Assembly (NCBI GenBank): GCA_964483665.1
Contig: CAZACP010000005.1
Coordinates: 1,910 to 65,909, forward strand
DNA: 64,000 bases
Direction: 5' to 3'
From: an uncultured Candidatus Saccharibacteria bacterium
Lineage (GTDB): Bacteria > Patescibacteriota > Doudnabacteria > UBA920
Shown here one piece after another: positions 589 to 49,486 of this stretch (position 1 is the first letter of the stretch; each line of letters begins with the position of its first letter). The translations under genes and the position numbers were made by a program. The notes beneath the pieces are model-generated. The model was not told where the DNA came from. It saw nothing but the letters and a program-made list of their open reading frames with translations, and did not search any database.

Positions 589-1200
589 TTAGGCTGTGTG
601 GTGTTCGTGAGTATGGTCGTGGCTGGCAAAGTTTTTTTGCATCCATTTTGCCAGCATTAAAGACCAAATGTAGCTGACTATTAAAACCAGCAATAAGGCA
701 ACCCCGGCGCCTTTGGTTAAGAGGCTAATTTTTTTGTCGGTTTCGCTTAAGCTTCTGGCTGTAAGAATAAAGCCGTTTTGTTTTCCGGTGTAGTGTTTAA
801 GCACGGCAGCAAAGCGCTGGCCGGTTTTAGGCTGCCAGGTAAAGCGGTTGTCTGGCATTTTTCTTGCCGCTGCAAAAGCTCCGGCCGGAAGCTGGGGGAG
901 TTCGCCGTTTAGGTAGCCATTGCCAACAACCGGCTTGCCGGTGTCATCATATACCACTAAAAACGGGTTGGAAGTTTGAGTAATATCTGTTTGGCCTAAA
1001 CTGCCGCCAATTAAGCTTAAATCGTCCACCTGGCTTAAGTCTTTTATAGCTTCTGTTGCCATTTGCGCTTGCGGATCGTTGGCACTAAGCCTGTAGTTTT
1101 GCTGAACTGACCAGTAGCTAAAGCCTGTAAGTAAAATGGCGGTTAAGGCTATGGGCAGCCAGAGGCCAAGAGCTAAACTTGAGATTTTTGATTTAGTCAT
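589..1200 (-). CDS. hypothetical membrane-anchored protein with His-rich C-terminus (HDHTHEHH)
   Basis: 203-aa ORF, N-terminal TM/signal segment, C-terminal TM plus histidine-rich tail; no recognisable family. Confidence 0.35.
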   Translation of the reverse strand: MTKSKISSLALGLWLPIALTAILLTGFSYWSVQQNYRLSANDPQAQMATEAIKDLSQVDDLSLIGGSLGQTDITQTSNPFLVVYDDTGKPVVGNGYLNGELPQLPAGAFAAARKMPDNRFTWQPKTGQRFAAVLKHYTGKQNGFILTARSLSETDKKISLLTKGAGVALLLVLIVSYIWSLMLAKWMQKNFASHDHTHEHHTA

Positions 1201-1245
1201 ATTTATTGGTTACTTAGGACTAAAGTCCTATTACTATATTAATGG

Positions 1246-1509
1246 TTAATTTATTATACCAGATATCTTAGCTTTGTTAAGCAACTCGACTTTTTTGCTT
1301 TTCGGCCATTTTTTGACCTCGATTTCGCGTTTGAGGGCCTTACTTTTATTTCTAAATTTTTCCGAGTAGACAATTTTGCCTCCGCCGCGGCTGCGCACGT
1401 ACTTAGAGCCTTTGCCTTGATTATGCAAAGCTTCGCGCTTCTCTAAATTGTCGGTATAACCGCAGTAAAGGCTTTTGTCTTTGCATTTTAAAATGTAAAA
1501 GTAATGCAT
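1246..1509 (-). CDS. GIY-YIG nuclease family protein (small, URI-domain only)
   Basis: YxYILKC...LYCGYT...L..R...H motif typical of GIY-YIG catalytic domain; 87 aa. Confidence 0.6.
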   Translation of the reverse strand: MHYFYILKCKDKSLYCGYTDNLEKREALHNQGKGSKYVRSRGGGKIVYSEKFRNKSKALKREIEVKKWPKSKKVELLNKAKISGIIN

Positions 1510-1513
1510 ACAA

Positions 1514-2200
1514 TTATTTTAAAATAGCCAAAGGGTCAAGCCAATTGCTAAGCTGCTCTTTGTTTTGTACATAGCCTAACAAGCTTATGTTTTCGCCTTT
1601 ATGAATGCTTAAGTGAAGGTGTTTTCTTTCAAAGTCGGTTTCCTTGGTATAACCTTTTCCTAAAACACCAATTATATTGCCGGCTTTTAATTCATAACTT
1701 CCGCCGGCTGGCGGATTATTTTTTACGCTGTCTATGTTTAGGTGGCCGTACAGCACTGTAACATTTTGTCCTTCCAGCTGGCAGCCTTGAATTACAACTC
1801 CGCCATAGCCTGAGACCCATTTTTTTTGTAAAATTTTGCCGCTGCAAACAGCGGTTATGTAAACCTCGGTATTTTGTTCTTCTGCCGCTGCCTCAAAGTC
1901 CACACCTGTGTGATAACCATAAAAGCGCTCTGGACTTACAGGGGAATTTTCCTTGGTAATATATATGCCAAAAGGTTTTTTAGTCACCCTATTTTTTGCT
2001 TCTGAAATCGGGAATTGCCATTCTATATTTGTAGTAGGCGTGGGCGTGGGTTCTTCTGTTTTTGTGGGGGAGGGAGTAGGTGTGTTTTCTGTTAATGTAA
2101 CAGGTTTAGGCTGAATATTTTCCTCGCGTTTAAGCTGGTAAGTATACAAACCATACAAAAGCAAGATGCAAATTATACTTCCGGCTATTTTTTTAAGCAT
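1514..2200 (-). CDS. M23/LytM family metallopeptidase with Pro/Thr-rich linker
   Basis: N-terminal TM, PT-rich linker, C-terminal HxGxD...LYGH...HLH motifs of M23 peptidases. Confidence 0.6.
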   Translation of the reverse strand: MLKKIAGSIICILLLYGLYTYQLKREENIQPKPVTLTENTPTPSPTKTEEPTPTPTTNIEWQFPISEAKNRVTKKPFGIYITKENSPVSPERFYGYHTGVDFEAAAEEQNTEVYITAVCSGKILQKKWVSGYGGVVIQGCQLEGQNVTVLYGHLNIDSVKNNPPAGGSYELKAGNIIGVLGKGYTKETDFERKHLHLSIHKGENISLLGYVQNKEQLSNWLDPLAILK

Positions 2201-2267
2201 ACGGTTATTATAGCAAAAACCCTTGAAAAAATAAGGTGAATATGGTAGAATACGTAAAGTTTTACGA

Positions 2268-2342
2268 GGCGCTATCGTCTAATGGTTAGGACAAGTGGTT
2301 TTCATCCACTAAATCGGAGTTCGATTCTCCGTAGCGCTACCA
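2268..2342 (+). tRNA. tRNA-Glu (anticodon UUC)
   Basis: Cloverleaf with acceptor GGCGCTA/TAGCGCT, D-arm TCGTCTAATGG, anticodon loop TTTTCAT, T-loop GGAGTTCGATTCTCC, encoded CCA; similar to bacterial tRNA-Glu. Confidence 0.8.
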
Positions 2343-3835
2343 AAGTTAACTTTCACTCTGTCGGCAATTACACGAAATTCATTTTTCCAAATAACCGCAA
2401 TAGTTTTATCGCTCTCCGAAGATTGCCAAGACAGGTTTTCCACTAAAGAACGAATAAGCAAACGTTTTTTCTCATCAGAAGCCATCCGATAAGCCAGGGA
2501 TGGCTTTTTGAGTAGTTTTCCAATTTTAGCAATGTGGTTCATAGTTTCTGTATCGGCCTTCTCCAAAGACATCCTTCGTTCACATAATTCTTTGTCCTTG
2601 TTAACCAAATTGGAGCTTGCATGTTTATATTCTTCTTCTGGTATGGTTCCGTTTAGACAAAGAGTTAACAATTTATCTTTTTCCAATCTAATTTTGGACA
2701 ATTCTAAGTCAACCGCTTTAATTTGAGTTAAGCGGTTTAAAGATAAGTCTGCCCTAAACTTAGCTACAGCCCTTAAAAATACAGTAGTTTCCTTTTCAGT
2801 AAACTCAATGTCGCATAAGGATTTAAAAAACTGGTCTTCTATAAACTCTTCTTTTATATTGCACTTGCAGCCAAACCTGCAGTTATAGTATTTGTACCTA
2901 TCACGTGCCGATATAGACCTTAGCTTTTTACCACAAAACGGACACGCCATTAAACCACCAAAAATATAAACAAATTTACGCTGGTGCTTGTAGCTTCTGC
3001 CGTCTAATACTTTTTGGACTTGGTCAAATAAGGCTTTGGTTATTATTGGCTGGTGTGAGCCGCGCTTGAGTGCTTTTTTAAATTTAAATACACCATAATA
3101 GAATGGATTGCGTAGTGTTTTGTATAGCGCCTTAGGATTTAGCGGTTTGGCCGGGTTAGTTTTAGTTCCTTTAGTCATTAAACCCATTTTGGTTAACTGT
3201 TTATGTAAGGCATCAATGCTGTAATTGCCAGTTGAGTAAATTTCAAATGCTCGTTTAACAATGCCGCTCATGACAGGATCTGGTTCTTTAACTCCTTTGC
3301 CTTTGTCCAAATAACCAATAGGTGCTCGTGTAGGACATCTACCGTCTTCCACCATGCCGTTTATGCCTTTATGAATTTCGTGCCGTAAGTTGTCTACGTA
3401 AAATTTTGCAAAACCTACCTGAATGGAAAACAACCGCCAATTTTCATTTTTACTGCTAATACCATCTGAAACAAAATGAATTTCAAAACCTTCCTTGGCC
3501 AAGTCTTCCAAAATTATTGCATCTTTAAAATTCCTTGTAGAACGGTCAATTTTGTGAAAGATTAAGCCTTTGCCTTTGTTTTCTCTTAAGTCTTTTACCA
3601 TTTCTTTAAAAATTTTTCTGTCATCACTTTTAGCGCTTTCAGTTTCTCGGTAAAATGGCTCTTTAATTTGTAAATTATTCCGGCGAGCGTAATCTTTTAA
3701 TTGACGCGCTTGTTCGTTAAGGCTTTCGCCTTCCGCCTGTTCCTTACTGGAAACTCTTACGTAGCAGTAGTAAATATTTTGGTTATTTTCTTTTTGCATA
3801 TATTTTTGACTGCTTGGCAAATTCTGTTCTGGCAA
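2309..3835 (-). CDS. large serine recombinase (resolvase/invertase N-terminal catalytic domain + recombinase domain + zinc ribbon + coiled coil)
   Basis: N-terminal YCYVRVSSKEQ catalytic Ser motif, central recombinase domain, CPFCG...CRFGC zinc ribbon, coiled-coil C-terminus; 3' end of gene overlaps 3' end of tRNA-Glu by 34 nt. Confidence 0.8.
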   Translation of the reverse strand: MPEQNLPSSQKYMQKENNQNIYYCYVRVSSKEQAEGESLNEQARQLKDYARRNNLQIKEPFYRETESAKSDDRKIFKEMVKDLRENKGKGLIFHKIDRSTRNFKDAIILEDLAKEGFEIHFVSDGISSKNENWRLFSIQVGFAKFYVDNLRHEIHKGINGMVEDGRCPTRAPIGYLDKGKGVKEPDPVMSGIVKRAFEIYSTGNYSIDALHKQLTKMGLMTKGTKTNPAKPLNPKALYKTLRNPFYYGVFKFKKALKRGSHQPIITKALFDQVQKVLDGRSYKHQRKFVYIFGGLMACPFCGKKLRSISARDRYKYYNCRFGCKCNIKEEFIEDQFFKSLCDIEFTEKETTVFLRAVAKFRADLSLNRLTQIKAVDLELSKIRLEKDKLLTLCLNGTIPEEEYKHASSNLVNKDKELCERRMSLEKADTETMNHIAKIGKLLKKPSLAYRMASDEKKRLLIRSLVENLSWQSSESDKTIAVIWKNEFRVIADRVKVNFGSATENRTPI

Positions 3836-4168: not shown

Positions 4169-4195
4169 GTTAACCTCGTTAACCTAGTTAACTTA
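4169..4195. repeat. three tandem 9-bp direct repeats GTTAACCTC/GTTAACCTA/GTTAACTTA (iteron-like)
   Basis: Read directly; third copy overlaps stop codon of P-loop gene. Confidence 0.6.
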
Positions 4196-5647
4196 AGGGA
4201 GTAGCGGTGTTTGGTCTTCCATTTCCTCTTTTTCTGTACCTAACATGGTTTTTGTTATGCCGTAATACTCTGCTAAATCATGAATTCGTTTATACTCTGA
4301 TGCAGGAACGCTGAATCCTGTTGAATCTCTAAACTTCTTTATGCCTAGCTTGGAAATTATCGTGCCAATCCTTTTGGCCGAAACTACGTAATTCTGGCTA
4401 ACAAGCATTTGTCCGGTTTCTTCGCTTTTGTAATGGGAGTCCGGACGGTCGTTATATTCGTTGTAGAATTTACGGCTATACCAATCAGCAACTTCCTTTA
4501 TACGAATTTTTTTGACGTATGCTTGGTTTTTATCTTTAGCTAACATCTCTTGTAGACAAATAAGTACTTCCGTTTCAAAAGAGTTGTGCAACTGAGACTT
4601 CAATTCGTTGTCTGCTTTAATGCCAAATTCCAAAACTTTATTAACCACGTCTTCGCCTATCAATGCCGCTACTGTTAACATTGCGCTAAAGGTTTGTTTC
4701 ACTCTTGGGGTTTTTATTTTGTCTGTGTATTGCTCAGTAATTTCAACCTTGCCATAATTACTAAATCTGAAAGCAAGAAGCATCCTGCGTAGAAATGCAG
4801 CTATGTCCTCGTTGTCCTTAGACATTGTAATTGGGAAGCCATTTGCTTTGCCGTGATACAGCCACTGTGTTATACAACGACTCTCAAGTGCTTGGTCTCC
4901 AAAGCGTTCTCGTGATGCTAAAATTTTCGGACCAAAAACATCAAAGACTACCGTCTTAAAAGTGCCATCTTTTTTAGGCTCCATTCTCAGGACCGGAAAA
5001 TTCTTTATGTGCCCAGCGTTTAGAATTTTTACGATAATTGACCACATATCCGAATTTTTAAAGTCTGTTTCGTCAAAAACCATAGTACCTTTAATTTGGT
5101 TTAAAGTTCGGAATATTGCCGAATTAGAAGCGGGTCCGCCAAAAAACATAGCCTTATAACAAAGACTACCGACTACTTCTAAAAATCTGGTTTTACCGCT
5201 TCCGAAACCTCCTATAACTCGGAGATAAGGCACAACAGGAAACTTGTCATAAACCCAAGTCATCATTATGTATATGGCCGCTATGGTATAAAATTCTTCG
5301 GGTAAAAATATCCACTTTTTTAAGTGCATCTTAATCGCGGCAAATAACCTATGGTTATCTCCGTAACCTTCAATGTCATTTGGCAATTTCAGAAAGCCGG
5401 ATTTTAACATTTGGTCTGTAGGTGGCCAGGGCAAAATTTTATCCTGCTCGGTATTAATAAGTTCTACGAATTTCACTTCCTCTAAATTTGCTGATTGTCC
5501 GTTTGAAACCACAAATCCGGTTGTGTTAGATTCGGGCTTGTAAAACATTTCCACTAACGAACCATCACTTAAGATGTCTGAAATTTTATAGACATCAGGG
5601 ATTGTTTTGTCCATGTTTAATATCTCCTTTCGCAGCAGCCAGCTCAT
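4193..5647 (-). CDS. P-loop NTPase, putative replication/primase-helicase-associated protein of integrated element
   Basis: Walker A GGFGSGKT and Walker B VVFDETD; 484 aa; context next to recombinase; family not resolved. Confidence 0.5.
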   Translation of the reverse strand: MSWLLRKEILNMDKTIPDVYKISDILSDGSLVEMFYKPESNTTGFVVSNGQSANLEEVKFVELINTEQDKILPWPPTDQMLKSGFLKLPNDIEGYGDNHRLFAAIKMHLKKWIFLPEEFYTIAAIYIMMTWVYDKFPVVPYLRVIGGFGSGKTRFLEVVGSLCYKAMFFGGPASNSAIFRTLNQIKGTMVFDETDFKNSDMWSIIVKILNAGHIKNFPVLRMEPKKDGTFKTVVFDVFGPKILASRERFGDQALESRCITQWLYHGKANGFPITMSKDNEDIAAFLRRMLLAFRFSNYGKVEITEQYTDKIKTPRVKQTFSAMLTVAALIGEDVVNKVLEFGIKADNELKSQLHNSFETEVLICLQEMLAKDKNQAYVKKIRIKEVADWYSRKFYNEYNDRPDSHYKSEETGQMLVSQNYVVSAKRIGTIISKLGIKKFRDSTGFSVPASEYKRIHDLAEYYGITKTMLGTEKEEMEDQTPLLP

Positions 5648-5846
5648 CGTAAATTTCCAAAATACTGCGCGTGTATCCTAGAAGAGTTTCCGAAAGTTGG
5701 CTGCTGTCATTAATTATTTCTTCCGCAGAATCTGCAGAATTTTTAAAGTTTTCTTCTCGCATAAGTTGTGGACGCAAAAAAAGACCTAAGAGCTATGCAC
5801 ACCAAAGGTGCATATAACTCTTAGGTCTCTAATACCTACCCGTTAT

Positions 5847-5876
5847 TTGGGATTTACAGCTGACACCTAGTATAAT
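5847..5876 (+). promoter_or_regulatory. sigma70-like promoter (TTGGGA-N18-TATAAT, alternative TTTACA -35)
   Basis: Consensus -10 TATAAT at 5871-5876 with plausible -35; lies in noncoding ori-like region. Confidence 0.35.
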
Positions 5877-5882
5877 TTCTTA

Positions 5883-6017
5883 CCTAGATGTTCGATGCCG
5901 GTTTGCACCGGTAAACAAGCTAACTGCTTGTAAGATGAACGGTGGATTCCCGTTCGCCACTTATGGCTTTTAAAGCCACAAGATTCCAACAACTGTAAAT
6001 TTTCTATTTTTATTATA
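5883..6017 (+). ncRNA. candidate small RNA: four consecutive stem-loops followed by U-rich tract
   Basis: Hairpins CCGGTttgcACCGG, ACAAGCtaactGCTTGT, GAACGGtggattcCCGTTC, TGGCTTTTAAAGCCA then TTTTCTATTTTTATT; downstream of promoter. Confidence 0.25.
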
Positions 6018-6451
6018 CTCCATCGGTTTAGAGTGTCAAGTTTTTTTGCAAATTTATAAAAATTTTATTAACTTGGTGAACATTGTTAACTTCTAAACAC
6101 TTATAGCAGCCACCATAGGTAGAAATCCTAACGCTTAATATAAATCTATACTGTGCTAAATAAAAATGTACCGAGACTGTCCTGGTGCTTCCGGCAATGC
6201 CGTAAACTGTAAGCCGGTGGTGAATATTTACAAAATGGCCTATTTTTAATACAATATAGCTACAACAAAGCCTAAACCAACAGCTAAAAACTGATGGCAT
6301 GGCGCAATAAAGGTTAATCACCGTGAAGCACAATGACAGCCATCTGTCTTGCCTTTACGCTTCACGGTGTAGCCAGGGAAACCTGGTTTGGCAAGCGGGT
6401 GGCCCTTTTTGTTAGCCACTAGCTTGCAGCATTACAATTAACAATAATAAA

Positions 6452-6775
6452 ATGCTCACAAGCTTTTTGTTAATAGCAACAGCTATTATATTAGTTTCCG
6501 CAAAACTAATTAAAAATGTGGTTATAAAATATAAATTAAAAAATTCTAAACTTGTGCAAAATAAAGAAAACCTGCAGTGCCAGGCATGCGGTTTAGAATT
6601 TCATAAAGATAAATTTTTAGCTCACGTGTTAGATACTGCGACTTTTGATGAAATGGAAATAAAAGAATCTCCGCTTATAAATTTACTTTCTCTAAATAAA
6701 CATAAATATTATATTGGTAAAGCGATTGCTGAAACACAAAAAGCTGGTGGCAACTTGCAGGCTATTAGCGATTAG
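6452..6775 (+). CDS. hypothetical small protein with CxxC
   Basis: 107-aa ORF, N-terminal TM; no family. Confidence 0.3.
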   Translation: MLTSFLLIATAIILVSAKLIKNVVIKYKLKNSKLVQNKENLQCQACGLEFHKDKFLAHVLDTATFDEMEIKESPLINLLSLNKHKYYIGKAIAETQKAGGNLQAISD

Positions 6776-7091
6776 TTGCCTGACTGTTTCTGGCTTTGAT
6801 ATTATTGATAATTTCTTTAAGTTGCGAACTCTGCTCCTGCAGTTTTTGTCGTTCCTGCTGATCGCTAATTTCCAAAAAAGCATTCGCCTTGCCAAATATC
6901 CTGTCCAGCAGTTCCTTTACGGCCGGAATATTGCCTTCGGATGCCTGTTTAATTAAAGCGGCCACTATTGGCCCTTTATTTTTTATAGTTTCTTCAATTA
7001 TATGTTGCCTCAGCGCTTCAGCCTCCAAAGTGTGAGCCGCTTTGCTTCCTTGTGGCCTGCCTGCACCGGTGCGCTTTCCGCCATGTGCCAT
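6765..7091 (-). CDS. phage-associated small protein with N-terminal GGKRxGAGRPxG motif
   Basis: MAHGGKRTGAGRPQGSK N-terminus typical of small phage/mobile-element proteins; divergent from XRE gene. Confidence 0.4.
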   Translation of the reverse strand: MAHGGKRTGAGRPQGSKAAHTLEAEALRQHIIEETIKNKGPIVAALIKQASEGNIPAVKELLDRIFGKANAFLEISDQQERQKLQEQSSQLKEIINNIKARNSQATNR

Positions 7092-7268
7092 AAACTTGAG
7101 TAAAGAATCAAATAATCAAGTTTATCCTATTATTAAGGTTAAAAATTGTACAATTTATAGCTTTTGCACCTGTGGATATTTAAGTGTAAGCTTTTAAATA
7201 TCCTTGATTTTATTGGAAAAAATAAATTATTTGACATAAAATATTCCTTCAGGCATACTAATATTGCT

Positions 7269-7604
7269 ATGAGAAACATAAGCGACCTAGTAAAAAATCA
7301 ACGCACCAAGTTAGGCTTAACAATGGAAGAGGTAGGGGAAAAAGCGAAGCTATCACAAGGATTTGTGTCTAAATTAGAAAAAGGAGACTATAGCGCGGAA
7401 AGTTTGTCCTTGGACACAATAATTCGCCTTGCCGATGCTCTTAAATTAAAGGTTAAAGATTTTCTTGATGACCTTAAAGTTATCGAGTCCGACCAAGCCC
7501 CCTCATTAAATGTATATTTACGACAAAAGTACGACATCCAAAATACGAAAGATGTCCAAATGATTGAAGATATAATTAATAGGTTTATTAATAATAAGCA
7601 ATGA
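7269..7604 (+). CDS. XRE-family helix-turn-helix transcriptional regulator (Cro/CI-type)
   Basis: LVKNQRTKLGLTMEEVGEKAKLSQGFVSKLEKG HTH_3 motif; ORF track start is upstream, first plausible Met at 7269. Confidence 0.7.
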   Translation: MRNISDLVKNQRTKLGLTMEEVGEKAKLSQGFVSKLEKGDYSAESLSLDTIIRLADALKLKVKDFLDDLKVIESDQAPSLNVYLRQKYDIQNTKDVQMIEDIINRFINNKQ

Positions 7605-8113
7605 AGTTTTCGCAGGTCAACCAAAAAGCGGAGCAAACCGCCGCATCAATAATATCAGCCATTGGCAAAGACGAACCGTCCTTGGCTGATTTAATTGCTT
7701 GGTTAACTGAAAATTTTGGAATAAAATTTGAAATTTCTAAAATGGATTTATCCAACCACCCTGTATGCGGTTTGGTATTTCAAAATCCGGCCACGCGAGC
7801 TCATAAAGTAGTTGTTGACCGAAACGATTCAGCAGAAAGGCAGAGGTTTAGCGTATGTCACGAACTCGCTCATATACTGCGGGAAAAGGAATTAGTTTTT
7901 GGTTTTTTTAATGGGGATTTACAAAATCAAGACTATGAAGAACGATTTTGCAACCGCTTTGCCGCGGCTTACCTGATGCCTGAAAAATCTTTTCGGGCAA
8001 AATGGGCATCAACTTCAGAAAACTTTTTAATCAAACGCTACGCAATAGCAGAGTATTTTGGTGTATCAAAAGAAACAGTAATGTACCGAGCATTAGAACT
8101 TGGGCTCCAATAA
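7601..8113 (+). CDS. ImmA/IrrE family metallopeptidase
   Basis: HELAH zinc-binding HExxH motif in conserved context, translationally coupled (ATGA overlap) to XRE gene; classic ImmR/ImmA arrangement. Confidence 0.65.
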   Translation: MKFSQVNQKAEQTAASIISAIGKDEPSLADLIAWLTENFGIKFEISKMDLSNHPVCGLVFQNPATRAHKVVVDRNDSAERQRFSVCHELAHILREKELVFGFFNGDLQNQDYEERFCNRFAAAYLMPEKSFRAKWASTSENFLIKRYAIAEYFGVSKETVMYRALELGLQ

Positions 8114-16995: not shown

Positions 16996-17152
16996 AAGTT
17001 TCCTTTCTTACCCGTAGTTTATACGAGTATGAATAATCTGTCCCTCCTATTTTGTTTCCCCTGTACAGGCGCAGACTTGGCTGCAACTGCAAGAGGACTT
17101 GCCATTATAAGCCTTTTAGAACTAGTTGTCAAGAGGCTTTAAAGTTGATAAA

Positions 17153-36932: not shown

Positions 36933-37325
36933 AATAATAAAACAATAAAAATTTTCAGATCTATTGCGCTTAGATCTTAAATATTAAATCATCGGCAAGA
37001 AAAAACTTGTTGATGAATCTGAACTTAGTGGCTTATGCAGCCGGGCCAAACTCAGACTTGCTCGCAATTAGCAAACAATAGACCGCAGATACGCAGATCT
37101 AAACAGATCATGCAGATAAATACAAACTATGGTTTGGTAACTGACTTTGGTTTCAAATAAACTAACTAATTTAATACATTATAGCACAGCGGGTGTTGCT
37201 TGTCAACAAGTTTTTTATACAAAAGTCCTTAGGTAAATTACTGGTGCCGCTGAAGAGACCCCGGTACCAGTCACTACGACCCCTAAAGGGGGCGGTTCCG
37301 GTACGGGGCAGGTTTGAACTTAGAA

Positions 37326-48781: not shown

Positions 48782-48855
48782 TGGTGGACCTTGGGAGAAT
48801 CGAACTCCCGCATGCCGGATGCAAACCGGCCGCACTACCACTATGCTAAAGGCCC
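48782..48855 (-). tRNA. tRNA-Ala (anticodon UGC)
   Basis: GGGCCTTTAGCATAGTGGTAG...TTTGCAT...GGGAGTTCGATTCTCCCAAGGTCCACCA; G3:U70 pair present. Confidence 0.8.
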
Positions 48856-49411: not shown

Positions 49412-49486
49412 TGGTGGGTGCGGGAAGGATCGAACTTCCGACCCCGTCATTATCAGTGACGTGCTCTACCACTGAGCTACGCACCC
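49412..49486 (-). tRNA. tRNA-Ile (anticodon GAU)
   Basis: GGGTGCGTAGCTCAGTGGTAGAGCACGTCACTGATAATGACGGGGTCGGAAGTTCGATCCTTCCCGCACCCACCA. Confidence 0.8.

Follow-up and report, generated by a model that had tools for sequence, protein, structure and literature searches.

The window analysed here is a 64,000-nt stretch of contig CAZACP010000005.1 (GenBank assembly GCA_964483665.1) from an uncultured Candidatus Saccharibacteria bacterium. It contained a putative integrative element, whose operon was composed of a 55-aa open reading frame (ORF), a 473-aa helicase, an 81-aa ORF and a large serine recombinase, in that order. Upstream of this operon lay a non-coding region bounded by a consensus sigma-70-type promoter and an intrinsic terminator, and the RNA predicted between these two signals, termed the class A leader, is the main subject of this report (Table 1). 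The promoter, the RNA, the small ORF and the helicase gene followed one another in this order on the minus strand, and the small ORF began fourteen bases past the U-run of the terminator. Comparison with related elements indicates that the leader is a genuine structured RNA that is conserved and had not been described before, and it may control transcription of the operon.

Perfect TTGACA-N16-18-TATAAT sites numbered three in the window, where chance would give 0.05, and the promoter of the leader was one of them. This 60-fold enrichment indicates that consensus sigma-70-type promoters are genuine signals in this genome. The other two perfect sites were located at 17104–17132 and 37178–37206, both on the minus strand. 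From the perfect match upstream of the operon, transcription was predicted to start near position 6005 on the minus strand and to run to the terminator. The minus strand of 6010–5765 had a folding energy of -94.9 kcal/mol, with a z-score of -8.5. In the predicted fold, the hairpins P2–P6 were gathered in one junction, which was closed by the 11-bp long-range stem P1. In folds of truncated transcripts of the window and of the homologous locus L164, the linker between P1 and the terminator could instead pair as a small hairpin, UAGG(U)-AUUAGAG-(R)CCUA, which overlapped the 5' arm of the terminator.

An earlier note on this DNA, made from the letters alone, had described four tandem hairpins on the plus strand, CCGGTttgcACCGG (5898–5911), ACAAGCtaactGCTTGT (5915–5931), GAACGGtggattcCCGTTC (5937–5955) and TGGCTTTTAAAGCCA (5965–5979). 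These hairpins were all found within 5897–5982 and corresponded, in the listed order, to P5, P4, P3 and P2 of the leader. The fold was far better than that of shuffled sequences, with a z-score of -4.1 against dinucleotide shuffles for the plus strand of 5880–6020, and the stems were conserved in related elements with compensatory changes. P6, P1, the minus-strand promoter and the terminator with its U7 run had been missed. The statement that no ORF explains the stretch agreed with the comparison, and a coding explanation of the hairpin region was rejected because the homologues differed by indels of 1, 2, 4 and 9 nt, most of which are not multiples of three.

Covariation was assessed from three distinct full-length sequences (the window, L164 and L333) and two partial sequences (L335 and L337). 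The RNA of L164 aligned to window positions 5995–5766 with 70% nucleotide identity, and the helicases of the two loci were 52% identical. The helicase coding sequence of L164 gave no DNA alignment in the same BLASTN search, in which a 19-nt stretch of the small-ORF region was the sole other match. A third and more diverged full-length copy, L333/L334, was recovered by a search with the small ORF, and the same search yielded L337 and L335 as 5'-truncated variants. L165 was the same element from another assembly. The covariance model R1 scored 279 bits in the window, 274 bits in L164 and 130 bits in L333. The promoter was kept on the sense strand in both L333 and L164, and the terminator hairpin with its U-run was kept in all five homologues, with the copy of L333 called by the terminator scan.

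A conserved, covarying fold closed by P1 was shown by these sequence alignments. The P1 stem was TTTACAGTTG/CAGCTGTAAA in the window, TTCTCAGTAT/ATACTGAGAA in L164 and ACGGCAT/ATGCCGT in L333, and six of its nine modelled pairs were compensatory across the three sequences. In DNA letters, P3 changed from GAACGG/CCGTTC in the window to GAATGG/CCATTC in L164, P5 was CCGG/CCGG, GCTG/CAGC and CGC/GCG in the window, L164 and L333, respectively, and P6 was ACATCTAG/CTAGGTGT, ACATCT/AGATGT and ACATTCCA/TGGAATGT in the same three loci. The invariant stem of P4 gives no covariation information but points to strong sequence conservation. In the model-based alignment, which was fitted to the covariance model, standard pairs occupied 97.8% of the pair cells of the 58 modelled pairs (five cells were non-standard). 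Compensatory changes were found in 16 of the 58 pairs, compared with 0–3 when the 3' partners were shifted by 1–3 columns. A two-sequence MAFFT alignment gave nine compensatory pairs, compared with 0–2 in the controls.

A possible 4-bp alternative pairing that excludes P3 was also noted on the minus strand, between GUGG (5959–5956), directly 5' of P3, and CCAC (5945–5942) in the loop and 3' strand of P3. It was GUGG/CCAC in the window and L164 and GUGC/GCAC in L333, a single covariation, and could be a hint of a switch or a chance match.

The class A leader was confined to these loci in the searches made. A single-protein pattern scan of viral and genome contigs gave no close relatives, and alignment-based scans gave 200 loci, all of them at most 44% identical. 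L164 and L165 were the sole matches when the RNA was searched against the loci with BLASTN and nhmmer, and the covariance model R1 found no members past the class A loci among ~330 loci. Exact-pattern scans of viral contigs returned 14-mer chance matches and zero matches to longer patterns, and BLASTN against phage genomes gave no match to the RNA. The Rfam covariance-model search proposed by the earlier note did not place the leader in a family: none of the 4227 models of Rfam 15, including the C4 antisense RNA, EAR, riboswitches and T-box, matched 5776–6005 at its gathering score. At E<=10, the matches were solely chance matches on the terminator, such as sau-5971 with 25 bits against 90.

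Table 1. Positions of the leader, its parts, the neighbouring genes and the corresponding features of related loci. Positions are those of the window unless a locus is named.
Feature	Position	Strand	Basis or remarks
Sigma-70-type promoter TTGACA-N16-TATAAT (12/12)	6012–6039	-	12/12 in register in L333; 11/12 upstream in L164
Class A leader RNA, ~230 nt, predicted start to end of U-run	5776–6005	-	Minimum free energy fold; covariance model R1
P1, 5' strand AUUUACAGUUG	5990–6000	-	Pairs with 5852–5862; closes the multi-helix junction
Junction J1/2 UUGGAAUCUU, unpaired	5980–5989	-	Identical in all three full-length homologues (alignments)
P2 hairpin, includes TGGCTTTTAAAGCCA	5960–5982	-	Stem swapped for other complementary sequences in L164 and L333
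P3 hairpin GAACGG/CCGUUC	5937–5955	-	C-G to U-A in L164; loop AUCCACC kept in window and L164
P4 hairpin (A)CAAGC/GCUUG(U)	5915–5931	-	Stem invariant in all homologues
P5 hairpin CCGG/CCGG	5897–5912	-	GCUG/CAGC in L164; CGC/GCG in L333
P6 hairpin ACAUCUAG/CUAGGUGU	5863–5891	-	ACAUCU/AGAUGU and 9-nt shorter loop in L164; ACAUUCCA/UGGAAUGU in L333
P1, 3' strand CAGCUGUAAAU	5852–5862	-	Pairs with 5990–6000
Linker with conserved UAGGUAUUAGAG	5828–5851	-	Sequence conserved; alternative hairpin overlapping terminator 5' arm
Intrinsic terminator, 45-nt hairpin (5783–5827) and U7 (5776–5782)	5776–5827	-	-30.8 kcal/mol sense, -25.7 kcal/mol antisense
Small ORF, 55 aa from ATG	5595–5762	-	First gene after terminator; overlaps helicase start; relatives have small helical homologues in the corresponding position
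473-aa P-loop protein, SF3/MCM-like helicase (Rep-like)	4193–5614	-	Fold search; ribosome-binding site AAAGGAG
Large serine recombinase	2309–3835	-	3' end overlaps 3' part of tRNA-Glu(UUC)
tRNA-Glu(UUC)	2268–2342	+	Overlapped by end of recombinase ORF
Promoter-like TTGGGA-N18-TATAAT (10/12)	5847–5876	+	Judged a chance match; not conserved in L164 or L333
LOOT RNA (RF03000)	6269–6404	+	44.7 bits, gathering score 46.4, E ~1e-7; divergent from leader
Promoter-like TTTACA-N17-TACAAT of LOOT	6227–6255	+	Promoter scan
Class B leader	L003 780–938; L005 545–694; L012 995–1150; L067 2580–2741; L092 2590–2752		
Class B variants	L021 ~2610–2819; L085 ~2610–2817		
Third leader type	L029 ~2590–2825		

The RNA with its P1–P6 fold was very probably encoded on the minus strand, because it was bracketed there by the conserved promoter and terminator and contained pairs that can form on that strand only. 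In 29 pair cells, a G·U pair of the gene-sense strand corresponded to an A·C mismatch on the plus strand, and the terminator was rich in such sense-only G·U pairs. The terminator of L164 had an energy of -31.1 kcal/mol in the sense direction, compared with -11.3 kcal/mol in the antisense direction. Over the interval 6010–5765, the plus strand folded with -79.7 kcal/mol (z = -6.9), which was 15 kcal/mol less stable than the minus strand. The core domain alone of the window gave -58.7 kcal/mol for the sense and -46.6 kcal/mol for the antisense strand. Palindromic hairpins are by themselves silent on the strand, which is revealed by the promoter, the terminator, the G·U pairs and the homologues.

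The genes downstream of the terminator are real genes. The product of the small ORF belonged to a conserved family of small helical proteins located between the terminator and the helicase. The 473-aa protein had 2233 homologues, which were mostly labelled Patescibacteria. Its AlphaFold (AF2) model, with a pLDDT of 84, resembled MCM, the NrS-1 helicase domain (CTR), PriRep1, the SCCmec Cch helicase, AAV Rep40 and SV40 LTag in a Foldseek search. Therefore, the label Rep-like, which the earlier note had given to this gene, is a fair one on the basis of the model. The helicase and the small ORFs had zero matches in Pfam, PHROGs and PDB sequence searches. The overlap of the recombinase 3' end with the tRNA-Glu gene suggests integration of the element at or into this gene. 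A search of the rest of the window for a partial copy of tRNA-Glu, which would mark the other end of the element, gave none.

Within the small ORF, a 16-mer at 5650–5665 (minus strand UUUUGGAAAUUUACGA) was nucleotide-identical in the window, L164 and L333. The small proteins diverged around it, and the LEIY codons were identical at synonymous sites. Its complementarity to the leader extended over 7–11 nt and fell in a different part of the leader from locus to locus.

The slot before the helicase operon was filled by other RNAs in related elements. In other members of the closest helicase clade (L003, L005, L012, L067/L086 and L092), a different conserved RNA, termed the class B leader, was located 190–290 nt before the helicase gene. 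It comprised a promoter of the TTGAC type, a hairpin with covariation and a linker rich in A/U, and it ended in a 20-bp terminator hairpin with a U-run. Its motifs were TGATGAACGAGA, the covarying hairpin, CTGCTTTTATAAAATAAAAGTGCCCTCAAT and the 20-bp terminator followed by a T-run. Compensatory changes were observed in 14 of its 33 pairs, and it was absent from the Rfam gathering-threshold matches in its loci. A third leader type was found in L029. A strong terminator in the -500 to -40 interval was present on the sense strand in 16 of 171 loci and on the antisense strand in 4 of 171; most of the 16 loci were among the closest relatives, and several were more distant members of the family. The order of promoter, structured RNA, terminator, small ORF, helicase and recombinase is thus, by comparison of the loci, a conserved design with interchangeable leaders.

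The role proposed for the class A leader is that of an attenuator that gates the replication and recombination operon of the element. Transcription would start at the consensus promoter, and the RNA would fold into the P2–P6 junction closed by P1, followed by the conserved linker and the terminator. By default, transcription would stop at the terminator, so that the replication and recombination genes would be silent and a short RNA would be abundant. Read-through would be permitted by an effector, perhaps a small ligand, an RNA or a protein from the element or its host, which would act at the conserved junction UUGGAAUCUU or at the linker UAGGUAUUAGAG overlapping the 5' arm of the terminator. 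Termination is presumed to be conditional and to be relieved by such an effector. This role was proposed because no other promoter was detectable between the terminator and the operon, as the scan found no minus-strand promoter between 6000 and 5600. A probability of roughly 0.55 was assigned to it.

Several points weigh against this assignment. The promoter and the terminator are themselves predictions from sequence. The covariation statistics were thin, with three distinct full-length sequences, and the core domain of L164 alone had no strand preference (-40.4 kcal/mol sense and -42.2 kcal/mol antisense). A convincing antiterminator was not found in the folds of truncated window and L164 transcripts. 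The single candidate was the weak alternative hairpin of the linker with 4–5 bp, which was conserved in sequence and so carried no covariation. If there is no antiterminator, termination could be constitutive, and the transcript could be a free-standing small RNA (sRNA). In addition, the promoters of the host, which is probably a member of the Patescibacteria, may not all resemble the sigma-70 type, and a promoter of the operon may have been undetected.

A free-standing minus-strand sRNA that acts in trans is accordingly a possible alternative, to which a clearly lower probability was given. The terminator would then be constitutive, the operon would be transcribed by leakage or from an unrecognised promoter, and the RNA would be comparable to a regulatory or protein-sequestering RNA of a phage or of an integrative and conjugative element (ICE). 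The consensus promoter of its own, the very strong terminator and the lack of a robust antiterminator favour this alternative, and the adjacent LOOT RNA is classed as an sRNA by Rfam. The invariant unpaired 10-mer UUGGAAUCUU could also serve as a seed or a protein site; however, complements of the putative seed were not enriched in the window (9 found and 7.8 expected), and a seed function of J1/2 was rejected. The sRNA would not account for a position and orientation directly 5' of the same operon that were fixed in every homologue, for the non-homologous leaders that filled the same slot in related elements, or for the lack of a promoter in the 14 nt that separate the terminator from the ORF.

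A role of the hairpins in the DNA itself is very unlikely. They would function as single-stranded DNA or as a cruciform in the origin of the element, for instance at a single-strand origin or where a helicase is loaded next to its gene. The core module had a single sizeable non-coding stretch, in which the region lay beside the gene of an SF3/MCM-like helicase, and the domain also folded well with DNA parameters on both strands, with z-scores of -5.6 and -4.4. Motifs of single-stranded DNA and of RNA are hard to separate by sequence analysis (Weinberg et al. 2017, PMC5737381). However, a DNA-level element would leave unexplained the conserved bracket of consensus promoter and hairpin/U-run terminator, the strong G·U bias of the sense strand favours RNA, and sister elements carried unrelated leaders with the same promoter and terminator logic. 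No iterons were found in the region, and repeats in the intergenic region were short two-copy matches only.

The earlier note had proposed a plus-strand sRNA with its own promoter and U-tract, possibly a countertranscript for copy control, and its layout of a small structured RNA running from promoter to terminator beside a Rep-like gene was borne out as a prediction, on the other strand. The TTGGGA-N18-TATAAT site was present and scored 10/12 against the consensus; such matches were common, as 11 sites with at least 9/12 were found in the 2-kb region, where 6.0 +/- 2.7 were expected. Its -10 element lay inside the variable loop of P6, which was 9 nt shorter in L164, and the promoter scans of L164 and L333 gave no antisense site within the RNA region. 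The T-rich run TTTTCTATTTTTATT at 6000–6014, which had been taken as the end of the RNA, began ~20 nt past the last hairpin. It was the complement of the minus-strand -10 element and start site and was not T-rich in L164, and the terminator scan called no plus-strand terminator-like site in 5880–6100. On these sequence grounds, there is no plus-strand unit of promoter, hairpins and terminator, because the 10/12 site was unremarkable and the T-run was distant from the hairpins with no terminator called.

pT181- and pIP501-type countertranscripts act on a leader with a terminator just before the rep gene. A plus-strand countertranscript spanning ~5884–6015, complementary to the leader of the Rep mRNA and controlling copy number as in pT181, pIP501 and R1, would fit the four perfect palindromic hairpins, which fold on either strand, the 10/12 site and a sense leader ending in a terminator just before a rep-like operon, but it is scarcely credible in view of the missing plus-strand signals, the sense-only G·U pairs and the lower stability of the plus strand. 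The RNA was sense to the helicase gene within the bracket of a conserved 12/12 promoter and a strong terminator; therefore, the countertranscript reading was not supported. The earlier note had also suggested checking whether the leader of the Rep-like mRNA extends through the region, and in the predicted minus-strand unit the hairpins are that leader.

The RNA was also compared with the features of known classes. Countertranscripts such as RNAI/II of pT181, RNAIII of pIP501, CopA of R1 and RNA I of ColE1 have an opposite-strand promoter and a terminator of their own, neither of which was found here as a conserved signal, and their target is a rep mRNA leader that carries an attenuator or hides the ribosome-binding site; the corresponding terminator, 14 nt before the operon, belonged to the sense RNA and not to an antisense one. 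A cis-acting attenuating 5' leader of the riboswitch- or protein-dependent type has a position between promoter and ORF on the same strand, a structure supported by covariation and an intervening intrinsic terminator, and all three were present.

By analogy, the leader would work most like the rep attenuators of pT181 and pIP501 and the antitermination systems of lambda pR'-6S-tR', put and EAR, although membership of a known family was not established. In the repC leader of pT181 and the repR leaders of pIP501 and pAMbeta1, termination is brought about by an antisense RNA transcribed from the other strand. These systems share with the class A leader a promoter, a structured leader of a few hundred nt and an intrinsic terminator before the replication gene of a mobile replicon. 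In contrast, the leader described here had no conserved antisense promoter or terminator, its host was an integrative element with a helicase and a serine recombinase rather than a rolling-circle or theta plasmid, and no sequence or Rfam relationship was found. In lambda, the strong constitutive promoter pR' gives the short terminated 6S RNA (194 nt), and the operon is read when RNA polymerase becomes resistant to the terminator tR'; put and EAR are structured RNAs upstream of terminators that they overcome. Lambda pR'-6S RNA-tR', the Q/qut and N/nut systems, HK022 put and Bacillus EAR resemble the present arrangement in the order of promoter, short terminated RNA and downstream operon. However, no Q-, N- or LoaP-like gene was identified here and no EAR-type match was found in Rfam, antitermination is presumed here, and the operon encodes replication and recombination proteins, not late genes.

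In integrative or satellite elements that encode a primase-helicase, the CI RNA of P4 and the c4 RNA of P1/P7 are small structured immunity RNAs derived from the leader of the operon under their control; they terminate transcription prematurely and vary from lineage to lineage. Likewise, different leader classes preceded the same helicase family here, which makes the analogy attractive, whereas the leader had no Rfam match to C4. Complementarity between the leader and the downstream mRNA was limited to 7–11 nt to the conserved AUUUACG in the small ORF and involved different parts of the leader in each homologue; a P4/c4-like pairing would be short and inconsistent between homologues. Riboswitches with junctions, such as the five-helix lysine riboswitch, share with the leader a junction closed by P1, conserved junction nucleotides, covarying stems, a terminator and regulated genes. 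In contrast to them, the leader matched no known aptamer, no clear competition between P1 and an antiterminator was found, the genes serve replication and recombination of a mobile element and not metabolism or transport, and three leader sequences are known.

A probable LOOT RNA (RF03000) was located in the same intergenic region, on the opposite strand and divergent from the leader. Its scores were just below the threshold with full-length coverage of the model, at 44.7 bits in the window, 44.4 bits in L165 and 42.6 bits in L333 (gathering score 46.4). In related loci, LOOT scored 58–84 bits at the same place, and 11 of 20 such loci had a copy that exceeded the gathering score. In nine of these 11 loci it was divergent from the helicase operon and 0.5–1.6 kb upstream, and in L008 and L029 it was on the same strand as the operon and 2–2.6 kb upstream. 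L164 and L333 had the same arrangement as the window. LOOT therefore appears to be a standard component of the family of elements with a helicase and a serine recombinase.

The window and L165 were 99.8% identical from 6312 down to 193, in the host flank, and unrelated above 6312. The breakpoint (window 6312, L165 737) fell inside LOOT, of which L165 kept the first hairpin and had different but isostructural downstream hairpins. The genes beyond LOOT encoded non-homologous small membrane-type proteins in different loci. Therefore, LOOT marks the border between a conserved core and a variable part or cargo. LOOT and the leader shared an intergenic region within this element family, and LOOT likewise had its own promoter-like site and a terminal hairpin with a T-run; they differed in strand, and had no sequence or structural similarity and no consistent complementarity. 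LOOT as a trans-acting partner of the leader was rejected, as cognate duplexes were not energetically favoured over non-cognate ones and no complementarity was conserved in position. Literature searches on LOOT and on RNAs of elements in candidate-phyla-radiation bacteria gave only the discovery paper and Rfam listings.

A wider proposal, considered doubtful, is that lineage-specific leaders (class A here, class B and the third type in L029) gate the replication/excision operon of the helicase and serine-recombinase elements in Patescibacteria-like bacteria, together with LOOT, as RNA switches or leader-derived immunity RNAs, and that class A is an effector-sensing RNA of a riboswitch-like or antitermination type. 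To our knowledge, almost nothing is known about the gene regulation and mobile-element biology of candidate-phyla-radiation bacteria. If the description of the leader is correct, it adds a new class of structured RNA with a multi-helix junction, and one helicase family would be served by several unrelated leader RNAs. A conditional terminator would make the leader a control point for the replication and excision of small integrative elements in these bacteria. The orphan LOOT RNA is placed in a defined genetic neighbourhood, divergent from the operon and at the border of core and variable cargo. If the leaders are switches, this would be the first functional context for LOOT, and class A would decide when the mobile element wakes up.

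Other genes were noted in the window and in related loci. A pair of tRNA genes, tRNA-Ala(UGC) at 48782–48855 and tRNA-Ile(GAU) at 49412–49486, both on the minus strand, was separated by 556 nt. Such a pair is typical of the spacers of rRNA operons; a scan at Rfam gathering thresholds reported no rRNA in the window. On the plus strand, an XRE-type helix-turn-helix gene (7164–7604) was followed by an M78 (ImmA/IrrE-like) peptidase gene (7601–8113), a combination known as a classic induction pair of ICEs and prophages. A 108-aa DUF5681-like gene (6765–7091, minus strand) was located ~1 kb from the leader promoter, and a syntenic DUF5681-like gene was present in L333. The XRE/M78 pair and the DUF5681-like gene might encode regulators that act on the promoter or the terminator of the leader. 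In L166, a reverse-transcriptase gene (RVT_1, 507 aa; 1095–2618, plus strand) was located upstream of the region with LOOT and the helicase.

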